This document shows positions 2,547 to 7,025 of a stretch of 64,000 bases of DNA, piece by piece; position 1 is the first letter of the stretch, and every line of letters begins with the position of its first letter. The stretch lies in the sequence record MT150133.1; one strand, given 5' to 3'. This DNA is from Enterobacteria phage vB_EcoM_IME540. A program made the position numbers and the translations under genes. The notes below the pieces were generated by a model. The model saw nothing but the letters and a program-made list of their open reading frames with translations, had not been told where the DNA came from and did no database searches.

Positions 2547-3506
2547 TTATTTTTCGAAAGGACGAATTAAATGTTGGTTACGCTTAAACCGTTCAATGTA
2601 GTCGTTTTCACCTAAAGTCTTGTACATATTAACCACAGCTTGGTAGTTTTCCCATGCATAAGTGCGGAACCAACCTGAAGTGATTGAGGTGCACACTTTC
2701 TCAAGGGCCATATAGAAACTTAATGATGGTGAAATATTGAAGTCATTAGGAACCTGTGAACGTTCTAGTGCCAGGACACAAGTTTCTTCATACACACCAG
2801 CCAGTTTAATAGCTTCAGGCAAAGCCTCGAACTTCTCACGAGAGGTCATGACTTCAGAACCTTCCTTCATATAAAAGGTATATGCAGGGCGCCCTGCCAA
2901 TGCCACTGCTTCATGGATAGAGTCGTGGTCCAGAGTATAAATGGGATCATTAAAGAACGATGATTTGTTTACATCCAATTTAGGGTGGGAATAGCTCAAC
3001 GTTTCTTTTTGACGTTGCAACATAATTTCCTGGAGTTCTTCGTTAAGGGTGATACCTTTATTACGAAGGTATTTGATGTGGGACATGGTTTTCAAGAAGA
3101 ACGGATTATTCTTCAAGAAACGATGGGAGGTTTTGATAGCCAGACAGATATCAGGGGTTGCCCAATAGAAACCTGTAAGACGGTCCTTTTTAATATGATT
3201 TTCGGCATATTTCAGGAGACGATAACTTGAGGTGAAATCTTCGTCTTGAAGCTCACCGGTAATTTCTCGTACGTTAGTCAGGGCACGAACGATATAAGCT
3301 TCAAAATAGGTTTCTTTACCATTGTACATGCATTTAAAAGCCTGGACATCAGGGTTATCCACAGGAACATGGGCACCAAACATCCGAGCTTTAAAGTGAT
3401 TCCATGAGCCTTGGTCGGCAATGAAATCCCAATCAGAATTTTCGATATGCTTACTTTCAATCAGACCAGCGTGGTGCAGTGCACGAGAACCAATAACTAA
3501 CATCAT
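2547..3506 (-). CDS. hypothetical protein, 319 aa; possible Pol-beta-type nucleotidyltransferase-like motif
   Basis: Start at ATG 3506-3504 with RBS GAGGAAA; N-terminal IGSRALHHAGLIESKHIENSDWDFIAD loosely resembles the hG[GS]...DxD signature. Confidence 0.6.
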   Translation of the reverse strand: MMLVIGSRALHHAGLIESKHIENSDWDFIADQGSWNHFKARMFGAHVPVDNPDVQAFKCMYNGKETYFEAYIVRALTNVREITGELQDEDFTSSYRLLKYAENHIKKDRLTGFYWATPDICLAIKTSHRFLKNNPFFLKTMSHIKYLRNKGITLNEELQEIMLQRQKETLSYSHPKLDVNKSSFFNDPIYTLDHDSIHEAVALAGRPAYTFYMKEGSEVMTSREKFEALPEAIKLAGVYEETCVLALERSQVPNDFNISPSLSFYMALEKVCTSITSGWFRTYAWENYQAVVNMYKTLGENDYIERFKRNQHLIRPFEK

Positions 3507-3525
3507 AATATTTTCCTCAGTAAAC

Positions 3526-3765
3526 TTAAATTTCAGCGACGTAATCGTTATGCAATTCCCACATATCATCAGAATTATTCTTAATGATAGGAATTATCTC
3601 ATTAGAGATTTCTTCAGCATAAGGGTCATTGATACAGTGGGCATCTTCAAAACGAACACCGTAATCAGACTTCTTATAAGAGAAGCCATAAATCTTTTTA
3701 AACTTGGCGCGAGTAATGCGTACCGGTTCATTAGACTTATCGGACATCGGAGCGTAATACCACAT
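3526..3765 (-). CDS. hypothetical protein, 79 aa
   Basis: ATG 3765 preceded by RBS GAGGAG in conserved leader ACACAAACATGAGGAGAACAT. Confidence 0.55.
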   Translation of the reverse strand: MWYYAPMSDKSNEPVRITRAKFKKIYGFSYKKSDYGVRFEDAHCINDPYAEEISNEIIPIIKNNSDDMWELHNDYVAEI

Positions 3766-3792
3766 ATGTTCTCCTCATGTTTGTGTAGGGTA

Positions 3793-3821
3793 ATAGTAAC
3801 ATGATTTTCTAGAGTTGTACA
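3793..3821 (-). promoter_or_regulatory. early promoter (-35 TGTACA, -10 TACTAT) with conserved leader
   Basis: Minus strand TGTACAACTCTAGAAAATCATGTTACTATTACCCTACACAAACATGAGGAGAACAT-ATG; leader near-identical to the one at 62501-62557. Confidence 0.45.
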
Positions 3822-4138
3822 TCACTTCTGCAATATTCTAAAAATAATTTATCATTGTCTACTGTATCCCAACGACGCCAAGACGGGTTCCAGACCAAAG
3901 CGTTGTCACCACAATCATTGAGCTTAAAATGGTCGTAGTACATAGCTATGTGTCTAGTCTCGTCACCAGAGAACCCCAGTATAGGCTCACCGTGGGTGTG
4001 ATACATATGATGGTGCATTGAGAGGTCGCATTTGTAAAACATCTCACGTTTACCACGAACGAACAAGAAGGCCTGTCCATTCATATAGAATTCTTTATTT
4101 GTTTTCAAAAGATATTTGAATACTGAATCTTTATGCAT
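3809..4138 (-). CDS. hypothetical protein, 109 aa, His-rich (MHHHMYHTHGE)
   Basis: Start at internal ATG 4138-4136 with strong RBS AGGAGGA. Confidence 0.5.
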   Translation of the reverse strand: MHKDSVFKYLLKTNKEFYMNGQAFLFVRGKREMFYKCDLSMHHHMYHTHGEPILGFSGDETRHIAMYYDHFKLNDCGDNALVWNPSWRRWDTVDNDKLFLEYCRSDVQL

Positions 4139-4168
4139 AAGTCCTCCTACCACATCCATGTGGTTAAA

Positions 4169-4396
4169 TTATTTTCCTAACGAAATACGAGTAGGTTTTT
4201 TACCGAAATAGTCTTCATAAGAACCATCTAAACGACCTGCTTTAGACCGACAATATGAATCGTACTTTTTGTAATAAGTCATCTCAGTATTATAACGCGG
4301 GTGTCTATCAGCCATAATAATACTTAACGGCCAACCTTTGGCATAATCGCGAAGACCATTTATTTTACGAATGTATCTTTTCTTTAATTTTAGCAT
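4169..4396 (-). CDS. possible small basic protein, 75 aa
   Basis: ORF only; no convincing RBS at either candidate ATG. Confidence 0.3.
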   Translation of the reverse strand: MLKLKKRYIRKINGLRDYAKGWPLSIIMADRHPRYNTEMTYYKKYDSYCRSKAGRLDGSYEDYFGKKPTRISLGK

Positions 4397-4614
4397 GAGC
4401 TCGGATACCAGATTTTACCATCGGCCTGAGCAACGAAGGTGCGTCCAGCTTCTTCACCATAACAAGAGCTATTCAGCCAATCTTCGAGACGAACTTCACC
4501 GTCATAATCGTCGAGCTCAACACCAAAACTTTGAGCAGAAGCCATATCTTTTACTTTCTTATACAGTGCAGCCAGTTCAAGTGCGGCTTTTTCTAATTCA
4601 TTAATATCAGTCAT
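4390..4614 (-). CDS. small acidic protein, 74 aa, member 1 of a four-gene paralog array (C-terminus WYPSSC)
   Basis: Start at internal ATG 4614-4612 with RBS AAGGTGA; shares N-terminal MTDINELEK and C-terminal W-x-SS-x-C pattern with neighbours. Confidence 0.55.
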   Translation of the reverse strand: MTDINELEKAALELAALYKKVKDMASAQSFGVELDDYDGEVRLEDWLNSSCYGEEAGRTFVAQADGKIWYPSSC

Positions 4615-4624
4615 TTTTATCACC

Positions 4625-4837
4625 TTAGCAAGACATAGAGGATGTAAACCAGAAACCTTCACCATCTGGGATACCGTAATCATCACGGGCCCATTCATAA
4701 TCATCATATTCCGGATTCTTTGGAGAAATGTATTGTCCACGACCAGAAACATGGAACTCTTCACCCGTTTCGTCAGCCACGGCCTGGCCTTTACGTACTA
4801 ATTCGCGGATTTGTTTTTCAATTTCATCAATAGTCAT
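4625..4837 (-). CDS. small acidic protein, 70 aa, paralog 2 (C-terminus WFTSSMSC)
   Basis: RBS AAGGAAA upstream of ATG 4837; N-terminal MTIDEIEK. Confidence 0.55.
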   Translation of the reverse strand: MTIDEIEKQIRELVRKGQAVADETGEEFHVSGRGQYISPKNPEYDDYEWARDDYGIPDGEGFWFTSSMSC

Positions 4838-4846
4838 TTTATTTCC

Positions 4847-5128
4847 TTAACATTCAGAAGAAGAGGACACCCAACCGCCATTTTCTAGGCTGGTGGTGTA
4901 ATCATGCTGGTTTACAATAGCATACTGGGCTTCACCGTATTCTTCCCAGTGGGCAAGGTCGGCTTTCAAGGCGCCAGGAGAATAATAGTCACCGCCCATA
5001 CCGCGAGCAGGGTATATATTAAAATGAGTCTCATATTTGTTAGCAATTTCCTCGGCACGACGAATAGCTTTATGGATATCATTTACTGCGTCAGCCAGCT
5101 CTTTATTTTTACGGTAATCATTCATCAT
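4847..5128 (-). CDS. small acidic protein, 93 aa, paralog 3 (C-terminus WVSSSSEC)
   Basis: RBS AAGGAAA upstream of ATG 5128. Confidence 0.55.
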   Translation of the reverse strand: MMNDYRKNKELADAVNDIHKAIRRAEEIANKYETHFNIYPARGMGGDYYSPGALKADLAHWEEYGEAQYAIVNQHDYTTSLENGGWVSSSSEC

Positions 5129-5137
5129 AGCGTTTCC

Positions 5138-5428
5138 TTAGCACATTGCCGAAGAGGAGACCCAAGCACCAACTGTAACGACACCGTTTTCAACTTCACC
5201 GCCATTGTTTTCAATTTCATCTTTAAACCATTGGGAGCATTCATAACCGACAGGATAATATGTACGGCCTGAACCATAACCACCGGTACTGAATTCAATA
5301 CCATATTCATCTGCGATTTCTTCACATTTGGATTCGATGGTGCCTACTTTACCCAGCAGGTCATAGATAGCCTTTTCTGCGGACAGCGCGCTGTTGTATT
5401 CAGGGATTTCAATTTCAATTTTATTCAT
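5138..5428 (-). CDS. small acidic protein, 96 aa, paralog 4 (C-terminus WVSSSAMC)
   Basis: RBS AAGGAA upstream; start overlaps stop of upstream gene. Confidence 0.55.
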   Translation of the reverse strand: MNKIEIEIPEYNSALSAEKAIYDLLGKVGTIESKCEEIADEYGIEFSTGGYGSGRTYYPVGYECSQWFKDEIENNGGEVENGVVTVGAWVSSSAMC

Positions 5429-5778
5429 GATTTACATTCCTTAATAAAGGTTTCAAGGTCATTACGTTTAGTTTGTTTTACATACTCATTATAATTAACC
5501 ATAGCTAAAGCATATCTCTTTTTACGCGGCTTGTTTATTTTATTAGTTTGGGCAATATCAAAGACCCATGGGATAAAAAATCCTATTAAAGCCGGAACCC
5601 AAATCCATGCAAGGCTCATATCTTCAAACGGATGGCGAGGCATACCATTAATAATCCCACCGACAAGAAATCCAATTATCCCTGCAGTCATACTAGTAGC
5701 AATGCCGAGGAATAAGGAAATAGCTATATCATAATCTGCTAATGCGTAACCAGGGTCGGTTTTACTAGGCTTATGCAT
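5425..5778 (-). CDS. hypothetical membrane protein, 117 aa, with C-terminal ...NDLETFIKECKS tail
   Basis: Start at internal ATG 5778-5776; two hydrophobic helices (IAISLFLGIATSMTAGIIGFLVGGII; AWIWVPALIGFFIPWVF). Confidence 0.55.
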   Translation of the reverse strand: MHKPSKTDPGYALADYDIAISLFLGIATSMTAGIIGFLVGGIINGMPRHPFEDMSLAWIWVPALIGFFIPWVFDIAQTNKINKPRKKRYALAMVNYNEYVKQTKRNDLETFIKECKS

Positions 5779-6307
5779 TTTGAACCTCTTTAGCGTATTC
5801 GCGACATTCAGTAATAAAACGATTAAGTTTACGTTGTTGTTTACGAATCTCTGATGTATACTCATTGGCTAAAATAATAAGCTCATCTTTATCGTAATTT
5901 TTAATATCCGAATAACTCGGGCGGCGGTCGACCATACCAAAGTGGTCACCATTTTCTAACATCAAATAGCATACTAAATGGTAATCATCGTCGGCATCAA
6001 CAAGCTGTTTATAATCGCTTGGTTCATTTAAAGAGTATACTGAATAGCGTAGCCCAGCGAATTCCACTCGTTGAATAGCCAGATTTACGTCAATAATTTC
6101 TAAAGCATCTGCAAAAGAAAGGTCCTCAGCTAAAGCAAAGATAAAGGGTAATTTGGTAGTATGCCCACGGCTAGATGTTCTGCTTAAGAAATCGTTTGAA
6201 TAACCTAGGTCTTGGCGAATTCTATAAAGAACTGCATTAGTTTCATGTGAAAGACCACTATGTTTAAACCAATCAATATTTGATATCAGGTCGTCGTATA
6301 AACTCAT
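5771..6307 (-). CDS. hypothetical protein, 178 aa, with C-terminal IRKQQRKLNRFITECREY module
   Basis: ORF with RBS GGAGGAGAGGAG upstream of ATG 6307. Confidence 0.6.
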   Translation of the reverse strand: MSLYDDLISNIDWFKHSGLSHETNAVLYRIRQDLGYSNDFLSRTSSRGHTTKLPFIFALAEDLSFADALEIIDVNLAIQRVEFAGLRYSVYSLNEPSDYKQLVDADDDYHLVCYLMLENGDHFGMVDRRPSYSDIKNYDKDELIILANEYTSEIRKQQRKLNRFITECREYAKEVQNA

Positions 6308-6330
6308 AATATTCTCCTCTCCTCCAAATA

Positions 6331-6348
6331 GGGAGACCGAAGTCTCCC
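6331..6348. terminator. stem-loop GGGAGAC-CGAA-GTCTCCC
   Basis: Perfect 7-bp stem with tetraloop between two minus-strand genes; same stem sequence recurs at 46366-46383. Confidence 0.45.
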
Positions 6349-6355
6349 GGTAACA

Positions 6356-6949
6356 TTACTTAAGTGAATTAATGTAGTCTTCGATATCAGCAGAAGTCGT
6401 ATCCATTCCAACTTGCGGGCCTTTAAACGTTTCTACGCGCATCAGGGTGTCTTCGATATCAATCTTGGTCAGTGCAGCAATTTCAACAACATCGTCGGCA
6501 GTAGCAATACCAAGGGCAGCCATATTACGAGTTTCACGGATGTACTCGAGCTTAACAGCCAGTTCCTGACGAGAGTCATCAAGTTCCTTAACCTTCAGTT
6601 TAATTTCATTACGCATTTCGATATAATCATCGGCTTTCTTACGAAGCTGAGTAGCTGTACGACGATAAAGGAGACCGAGTTTAGCATGTACCTGGACATC
6701 AGAGCCTTCGGCAATCAGTTTACGAATTTCACGTTCTTTAGAAGCAGCGAGCTGGTCTTTTTCATTAGCCAAAGCACGAATACGTTTTTCTTCATTCACA
6801 GACTTAACATGAGCAGTCTGGAGTTCAGTGATTTTATCAATCAGAGTAGAAGCAGCTTTGGTGTATTGGTCTTCGATTGACAGGTTCTGAGCCATTGCGG
6901 TGCCCAGTTTAGAACGAATGAATTCAACGATTTTCTTTAAAGTGTTCAT
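6356..6949 (-). CDS. PspA/IM30 (phage-shock protein A / Vipp1)-like coiled-coil protein, 197 aa
   Basis: Start at ATG 6949-6947 with RBS GAAGGAAA; heptad-rich sequence with segments resembling PspA ([13 protein letters not shown] vs RALAEKKQL; [18 protein letters not shown] vs ELENKLSETRARQQAL), from memory. Confidence 0.5.
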
Positions 6950-7025
6950 AGTATTTCCTTCAGTTGGTTGATATTTTGTAATCCATGAGGACATTATACC
7001 CTGTCCTCTGAGGTTTGTAAACATT

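Follow-up and report, generated by a model that had tools for sequence, protein, structure and literature searches.

Nucleotidyltransferases paired with small proteins

In the HEPN-MNT (type VII) toxin-antitoxin systems, a minimal nucleotidyltransferase AMPylates its partner protein, an RNase that carries an R-x4-6-H motif. The known acceptors in these systems, as in nucleotidylylation of the GlnE/GlnD type, are Tyr residues. In MenAT1 of Mycobacterium tuberculosis, the nucleotidyltransferase MenT1 is blocked by MenA1, a protein of 68 amino acids (aa) that is encoded upstream of it (PMC10435456). The locus described here lies in the DNA of Enterobacteria phage vB_EcoM_IME540 (MT150133.1), of which a stretch of 64,000 nucleotides (hereafter, the window) was analyzed, and likewise combines a nucleotidyltransferase, in this case a predicted one, with small proteins, which are encoded by an array of four genes (p1 to p4) and share a C-terminal tail. 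Array and enzyme point to the two halves of an undescribed two-part phage module, and the main new result is the genomic linkage of the tail family with the enzyme. The best reading of the module is that the tail would dock in the enzyme, where it would either serve as a substrate, with O-nucleotidylylation of a Ser, or inhibit as a pseudo-substrate.

In the way it works, the module most resembles a nucleotidyltransferase with a small partner, as in MenAT1 and HEPN-MNT, but it is a member of neither on the grounds of sequence, of stoichiometry and of which part of the small protein matters. Compared with MenT1, the phage enzyme matches no Pfam family beyond DUF7275 and DUF7277, and it has an additional helical domain at its C-terminus, which is very highly conserved and contains D-H-D-x-x-H and E-R motifs. 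The phage small proteins occur as one to six paralogs with a C-terminal W-x-x-S-S-x-x-Cys as their defining feature, whereas MenA1 can do without its C-terminus, and the carrier is a virulent phage rather than a bacterial chromosome. The likeness to HEPN-MNT and to GlnE/GlnD, in which a pol-beta-fold enzyme modifies a side-chain hydroxyl of its partner, is in the present case proposed only; unlike the HEPN partners, p1 to p4 have no R-x4-6-H motif, and the candidate acceptor is a Ser in the C-terminal tail. Among families built automatically or semi-automatically, p1 to p4 clearly belong to PHROG 899 and the enzyme to DUF7275/DUF7277, and the two halves of the module, though common, are functionally uncharacterized. 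The literature that was searched contains no description of PHROG 899, of DUF7275/DUF7277, of their link, of the tail motif, of phage proteins with a C-terminal cysteine or of phage MenT-like enzymes.

The four-gene array and its C-terminal tail

Four abutting genes encode, as the earlier note had claimed, acidic proteins of 70–96 aa; they lie on the minus strand, and the pI of the proteins is 4.1–5.0. The array is headed by p4 (5138–5428, minus strand; 96 aa, pI 4.1), which ends in GAWVSSSAMC and belongs to the p4-type with a DYGSGRTYYP loop; it is followed on the same strand by p3 (4847–5128; 93 aa, pI 5.0), which ends in GGWVSSSSEC and is of the p3-type with a PARGMGGDYY loop, by p2 (4625–4837; 70 aa, pI 4.3), which ends in GFWFTSSMSC, and by p1 (4390–4614; 74 aa, pI 4.2), which ends in WYPSSC. 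The tail that the note had recognized, W-x-x-S-S-(0 or 2 residues)-Cys-stop, is present on all four, and the N-terminal likeness that it had seen in two of the copies is that of p1 (MTDINELEK) to p2 (MTIDEIEK). In a multiple alignment, p1 proved to be of a double-motif type, in which an internal WLNSSC (codons 4462–4479) precedes the terminal WYPSSC. Only 21 of the 562 stop-to-stop open reading frames (ORFs) of at least 40 aa in the 64-kb window end in Cys, and the W..SS..C ending occurs in p1 to p4 only; the shared ending is not due to chance.

Each of the four genes starts at an ATG and, as had been noted, has a strong ribosome-binding site (RBS) of its own, an AAGG-type sequence before the ATG (AAGGTGA, AAGGAAA, AAGGAAA and AAGGAAT for p1 to p4, in that order). 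The longest ORF of p1, which starts at GTG 4764 and overlaps p2, is an artefact, and the real start is ATG 4614 behind AAGGTGA. The RBSs of p1, p2 and p3 are fused with the stop codon of the gene upstream, in the form TG(C/T)-TAA-GGA, and that of p4 is placed after the 5425–5865 gene, because p4 heads the array; the stop of this preceding gene overlaps the p4 start (ATGA). At the other end of the array, the 3′ codons of p1 overlap the ATG (4396) of the neighboring 4169–4396 gene. Fusion of stop codon and RBS (TGC-TAA-GGA) was considered as a nucleotide-level source of the terminal Cys and was rejected, because the Cys is kept in genes that are last in their array and in distant phages with other junctions.

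The phage is a T4-type coliphage of the Dhakavirus group. Its region from 3800 to 6400 is 93–97% identical to the counterparts in phages LHE83, PSD2002, MX01 and Bp7, and in Bp7 it lies between homologs of T4 genes e.2 and e.6. In phage T4, both families are absent from the first 50 kb and from the syntenic interval, where e.2 runs straight into e.3. Apart from the DUF7277/DUF7275 gene, the immediate neighbors of the array have no function assigned by Pfam or PHROG. Between array and enzyme lie three small accessory genes on the minus strand, at 4169–4396 (75 aa, basic), 3809–4159 (116 aa, His-rich) and 3526–3765 (79 aa), which match PHROGs 7065, 9796 and 3723, respectively, all of them entries without a function. 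These genes are missing in several close relatives that retain both array and enzyme, and they are therefore treated as later insertions and are probably not core to the module. The best match to a sigma-70-like promoter upstream of the gene string (6993–7021, minus strand; TTTACA-17-TATAAT, 11/12) could, judged by its letters, drive the whole minus-strand run from the array through the enzyme; promoter-like sites in the region are no more numerous than in shuffled sequence, and no minus-strand terminator-like sites were found between 8000 and 2000.

The four proteins are indeed paralogs, since all of them match the profile of PHROG 899, an entry without any functional annotation, along their full length (E = 1.7e-9 for p1, 2.9e-14 for p2, 7.3e-20 for p3 and 3e-22 for p4). 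Pairwise similarity also extends past the tail, with BLASTP E-values of 6e-7 for p2 and p4, 6e-6 for p3 and p4, and 2e-4 for p2 and p3, p1 being weakly similar. Searches of Pfam, NCBIfam and PDB sequences with p1 to p4 gave nothing significant. Variation in copy number, which the note had proposed to look for in related phages, was found with four copies in Bp7, three in RB69 (one of them disrupted) and two in PG7, and with one to six in a wider sample.

An exhaustive profile search of 1.84 billion representative proteins yielded 362 cluster representatives (50% identity level) of PHROG 899 at E<=1e-3, and the family is a large, phage-restricted one of small acidic proteins, with a median length of 87 aa and a median pI of 4.5 among the 179 members examined. 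In these 179 proteins, on which the statistics of the tail rest, Trp is present in 177, Ser at W+3 in 177 and Ser or Thr at W+4 in 176, while W+2 is Ser, Ala or Pro. Cys stands at W+7 in 168 of them and at W+5 in six, which are of the p1-type with Cys straight after Ser-Ser; it is the terminal residue in 165 (92%) and the penultimate one in nine. The consensus is G-x-W-x-(S/A/P)-S-S-x-x-Cys-COOH. The body, in contrast, is poorly conserved: D40 and F46, the Asp and Phe of an A-D-x-x-G-x-x-F segment, are its only near-invariant residues, and a Y-G-x-G-G-x-Y loop is its other recurring feature. With an invariant tail on a variable body, the strongest constraint is therefore on the eight-residue C-terminal tail, which offers a precise experimental handle, by point mutants and by one peptide that is diagnostic in mass spectrometry.

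The family body is a helical hairpin with a small beta-sheet. In the AlphaFold2 model of p4 (pLDDT 91.3, pTM 0.79), which comprises three helices, one of them short, and a small sheet, the Trp belongs to the last beta-strand, and placement of the final residues is less confident (mean pLDDT 73); as a prediction, this is consistent with a tail that is anchored yet accessible. Two other identities were considered. A likeness to DsrC/TusE-like sulfur carriers in the terminal or penultimate Cys is superficial, with no support from sequence, fold or Pfam, and targeting to the capsid as internal proteins, suggested by I-x-E-like N-terminal sequences, was set aside with nothing in its support.

The earlier note had regarded the copies as rapidly evolving paralogs, a view that holds for the drift of two of them but not for their origin. 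Recognizable orthologs of the p1-, p3- and p4-types exist in distant groups (Karamvirus, Mosigvirus, Aeromonas phages, Phapecoctavirus and Otagovirus): those of the p1-type in Enterobacter phage PG7 (PG7_138), a metagenomic T4-like contig (L004c), an AP1-like phage (Aeromonas) and Schickermooser, those of the p3-type in RB69 (ORF137c) and L004b, and those of the p4-type in six groups, represented by PG7, L004, L028, the AP1-like phage, Schickermooser and phiPsa347 (Otagovirus). By this comparison of sequences, the array copies are no recent, fast-diversifying tandem duplicates. Among close relatives, identity is 93–99% for p1, 82–99% for p3, 67–98% for p4 and 54–91% for p2, compared with 83–99% for the enzyme; p2 is thus the fastest-drifting copy, and only p2 and p4 outpace the neighboring enzyme.

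The partner enzyme and its linkage to the tail family

The partner gene lies ~0.9 kb downstream of the array and matches DUF7277 and DUF7275, Pfam entries that carry no function. Its longest ORF is 2547–3569; the family alignments begin at Met22 of this frame, and the likely gene is therefore 2547–3506 (minus strand, 319 aa). The predicted structure has the bi-lobed pol-beta nucleotidyltransferase fold, and in this model it resembles MenT, AbiEii-type and ANT(2″) nucleotidyltransferases. An alignment of 25 homologs revealed an invariant G-S...D-x-D...E set near the N-terminus. G6, S7, D25, D27, E69 and K125 are conserved in all aligned homologs, K125 being the equivalent of the MenT Lys by inspection only, and G6, S7, D25 and D27 are kept in 88 of the 88 homologs that possess the N-terminal domain. 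From the alignment of these catalytic motifs the enzyme is read as a pol-beta-fold nucleotidyltransferase, predicted to be of the MenT/ANT type and to move a nucleoside monophosphate onto a hydroxyl. The C-terminal domain is also strongly conserved, with K-x-x-H-R, D-H-D-x-x-H, E-E, E-R and T-S-I-T-S-G-W-F-R-E motifs.

A Pfam scan of 25 enzyme homologs at E<=1 returned solely DUF7275 and DUF7277, with neither AbiEii/DUF1814 nor RlaP/PF10127, and the enzyme has no match among PDB sequences. Identity of the enzyme with RlaP, which is likewise phage-borne and of the pol-beta fold and which is associated with RNA ligase, was rejected because of this lack of a PF10127 match; small Cys-tailed partners, moreover, are undescribed for RlaP in the part of its description that was available. 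By a translated search, 733 of ~50,700 deposited phage genomes carry the enzyme. Among one genome each of 185,579 bacterial and archaeal species it occurs five times, always on metagenome-assembled contigs, and in all four of these contigs that have upstream DNA, family genes abut the enzyme.

In IMG/VR, 17 loci were anchored on close and moderately distant enzyme homologs, and all of them have one to three tail-family genes 0.4–2.3 kb upstream. The linkage extends to a set of 80 enzyme-anchored viral loci, in which a family gene lies within 4 kb in 71 by hidden Markov model (HMM) and in 75 by HMM or motif, distances from the enzyme being overestimated wherever only its C-terminal domain was matched; in the remaining five, no family gene lies within 4 kb. 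The family genes are upstream and on the same strand in 72 of the 80 loci, in one to six copies, numbers that are approximate since they were counted as stop-to-stop frames. When the search was anchored on the family instead, the enzyme was present in three loci and absent from two short contigs, none lying within the DNA of L006 and L042/L043, and one contig was too short. On L042/L043, the family gene is two genes away from a Tad2-like gene (anti-Thoeris family).

The arrangement varies in detail. Several loci have their last small gene right against, or running into, the start of the enzyme gene (L005, L029, with an overlap, L046 and L047); on the 3.3-kb contig of L005, a distant family member stops 12 nt before the enzyme gene, and a contig of 2 kb consists of four consecutive family genes followed by the enzyme. 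Distant enzyme homologs were also examined on contigs that otherwise have quite different genes. Family genes are directly upstream of the enzyme on a 151-kb contig with a resolvase and a SIR2 gene and on an Aeromonas-phage contig with RNA ligase 1; on a marine contig with thymidylate synthase and ribonucleotide reductase nearby, they are ~0.6 kb upstream, with two genes between. In these loci (L024, L028 and L029), the linkage is thus kept although the outer neighborhood is wholly different. The pairing is also found in phage groups unrelated to T4: Pseudomonas phage phiPsa347 has four family copies upstream of the enzyme and E. coli phage Schickermooser (Phapecoctavirus) has three, while Stenotrophomonas phage Mendera (Menderavirus) has two or three downstream of the enzyme, and its gene order is therefore inverted. 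Acinetobacter phage Berthold (Twarogvirinae) also has family and enzyme paired. The module thus ranges from T4-like phages of enterobacteria, Aeromonas, Acinetobacter and marine hosts to unrelated phages of Pseudomonas, Stenotrophomonas and E. coli, several of them in groups that are used or considered for phage therapy. RNA ligase genes occur a few kb from the enzyme in two loci (L029 and L035) and are not a consistent neighbor.

Adjacency by itself could mean that the two are regulated together or act jointly on something else. Small proteins and enzyme might work side by side and not on each other, sharing a cassette or a target; the small proteins might, for example, be independent binders for anti-defence or host takeover, with a tail that recognizes a host protein, and might stay beside the enzyme only through membership in the same mobile accessory cassette. 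The unrelated genes inserted between array and enzyme in the window would suit such an arrangement, as would the family genes without a nearby enzyme, one of which is the neighbor of the Tad2-like gene, and the drift of p2 and p4, which exceeds that of their neighbors, as is often the case for host-facing proteins. It is nevertheless unlikely, because the adjacency has outlasted transfer among unrelated phages, replacement of the flanks and inversion of the order, which is hard to explain without functional coupling. Absence of family genes also coincides exactly with absence of the enzyme's catalytic domain: the homologs of Streptomyces, Gordonia and Vibrio phages, which keep the C-terminal domain and have no alignable N-terminal catalytic domain, are the three without a nearby family gene. 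This co-absence, in a small sample of three, points in the same direction and supports coupling.

The tail as a candidate substrate

Since the strongest constraint in the family is on the tail and the sole conserved partner is a nucleotidyltransferase, the tail is most simply read as a substrate, which the enzyme would recognize and in which the invariant Ser would be the acceptor. This model is put forward tentatively, as a real possibility that falls somewhat short of being probable. In the proposed mechanism, the Trp would anchor the tail onto the body, and the exposed Ser-Ser-x-x-Cys end would enter the active site, where the enzyme would transfer a nucleoside monophosphate, whichever nucleotide is used, to the hydroxyl of the invariant Ser at W+3, or possibly to the residue at W+4. 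The chemistry would be the same as that of the structural relatives on the 3′-OH of RNA and on the OH groups of aminoglycosides and lincosamides. The distinct bodies of the paralogs would carry the mark, or would be switched by it, toward different putative targets in early infection. That a single enzyme has several diversified partners, all with the same invariant site, fits better with an enzyme of many substrates than with a one-to-one toxin-antitoxin pair. If the tail is the substrate, the module would represent protein nucleotidylylation of a new kind, with Ser as the acceptor, at the C-terminus and by a MenT-type enzyme. It is a real possibility, though less likely than not, that the module is more broadly an unrecognized protein-modification system of virulent phages from several unrelated lineages, in which a MenT-like enzyme writes a nucleotide, or a chain or ring primed by a nucleotide, onto the invariant Ser/Cys tails of small acidic carriers and thereby covalently marks a family of effectors for host takeover or counter-defence.

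Several observations tell against the substrate model. The three unrelated small genes between array and enzyme in the window, the five of the 80 enzyme loci that have no family gene and the two family contigs that have no enzyme are exceptions to a strict pairing. In addition, MenT1, the closest structural relative, is inhibited rather than served by the small protein encoded upstream of it, an analogy that may extend to the phage enzyme. The small proteins would in that case be pseudo-substrate inhibitors of a MenT-like toxin, which they would restrain, or time in its action, by plugging the active site with the tail; the toxin might, for example, extend the 3′ end of host tRNA and so shut off host translation. 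Inhibition of this kind would parallel the blocking of MenT1 by MenA1, but it appears somewhat unlikely, given that there are several paralogs per enzyme (four here and one to six elsewhere) and not one antitoxin per toxin, that the small proteins are restricted to phages and that MenA1 does not need its C-terminus. If the tail is nevertheless an inhibitor, phages would carry a regulated MenT-like toxin, with a bearing on the shutdown of host translation. Substrate and inhibitor alike would provide a function for two families that are classed as domains of unknown function.

Nucleotidylylation of Ser alone does not account for the strictly conserved terminal Cys, and inhibition leaves it equally unexplained. 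A role for this residue would be given by formation of a lanthipeptide-like ring, in which the nucleotidylylated Ser would be converted to dehydroalanine and the thiol of the terminal Cys would add to it, closing a ring of the lanthionine or aminovinyl-cysteine type. In the aminovinyl-cysteine ring of the epidermin type, the spacing from Ser to the terminal Cys equals that of S-x-x-Cys-COOH, which is the commonest spacing in the family (168/179), and such a ring would account for the conservation of both Ser and Cys. To our knowledge, however, no pol-beta-fold enzyme performs an activation that leads to such rings, and in the p1-type the Cys follows directly on Ser-Ser, a poor geometry for ring closure. 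The presence of several precursor-like genes beside one enzyme resembles clusters for peptide natural products, but the pattern of conservation is opposite to that of natural-product precursors, with a constant "core" and a variable body. Searches of the neighboring genes against Pfam, PHROG and NCBIfam revealed no dehydratase, cyclase or decarboxylase family, and radical SAM, YcaO, lanthipeptide and E1-like enzymes are absent from the immediate neighbors of the array. Formation of a ring is rated as highly improbable because of this lack of a supporting enzyme signature, and the substrate model, with a nucleotide on the Ser, is preferred to it. What the enzyme itself would offer toward ring formation are two Cys residues of its C-terminal domain, C243 (conserved in 77/92 homologs) and C272 (89/92), and the His residues of the same domain, which are invariant.

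Tail variants and a disrupted paralogue

Variation in the C-terminal tail of the PHROG 899 family bears on which of its residues are essential. A marine Tara contig encodes a clear family member (L024, 5202-5384; E 1e-13) that ends in ...GEWTSSSQN and does not contain any Cys, so that the Ser residues of the tail are retained and the Cys is not; this gene lies approximately 0.6 kb upstream of the gene for the enzyme, the predicted MenT-like nucleotidyltransferase, with two genes intervening. At another locus (L040, 161-1353), four tandem family genes are located directly upstream of the enzyme gene, and three of the four carry a variant tail, G-W-(V/E)-P-S-G-L-(N/D)-C. Because this variant keeps only the Trp, the Ser at the third position after it (W+3) and the terminal Cys, the set of essential residues is narrowed.

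In phage RB69, the gene orthologous to p4, the array member at 5138-5428 in the window, is split by a frameshift into ORF139c and ORF138c (L002, 4986-5295), and its tail reads WVSSPALC, in which the Ser at W+4 is gone. Because the orthologous gene is unbroken in other Mosigvirus phages, RB69 could represent a natural knockout of a single paralogue; alternatively, a sequencing error could account for the frameshift.

Gene neighbourhoods at other loci

In one Karamvirus-like genome (L071, 2700-3600), no tail-family gene was found upstream of the enzyme; the region is devoid of long ORFs and has the appearance of RNA genes, and the array may have been replaced here. On two further contigs, a family member is followed, two genes further downstream, by a gene from the Tad2-like (anti-Thoeris) Pfam family (L042, 6498-6764; L043, 3024-3290), which hints at an anti-defence gene neighbourhood; the enzyme gene was not found on either contig. 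Downstream of the enzyme, at a distance of 2-3.5 kb, a phage SIR2/CobB-like gene is present at three unrelated loci (L028, 9519-10316; L032, 7200-8015; L038, 6975-7640), one of which belongs to a Vibrio phage without the small proteins, and this recurrence may be a coincidence.

Genes flanking the array

Between the enzyme gene and p1, the array member nearest to it, lie three small genes (3526-4396), whose presence varies among close relatives. Their products are 75, 116 and 79 aa long; the 75-aa protein is basic, and the 116-aa protein contains the sequence HHHMYHTH. Since the gene for the 79-aa protein overlaps the enzyme gene when the latter is read as its longest ORF, the downstream enzyme start at 3506 is favoured. 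Just upstream of p4, a predicted membrane protein of PHROG 2330 is encoded at 5425-5865, and the stop of its gene overlaps the p4 start. This gene is locally fast-evolving, with 45-59% protein identity in most close relatives as against >80% for the flanking genes.
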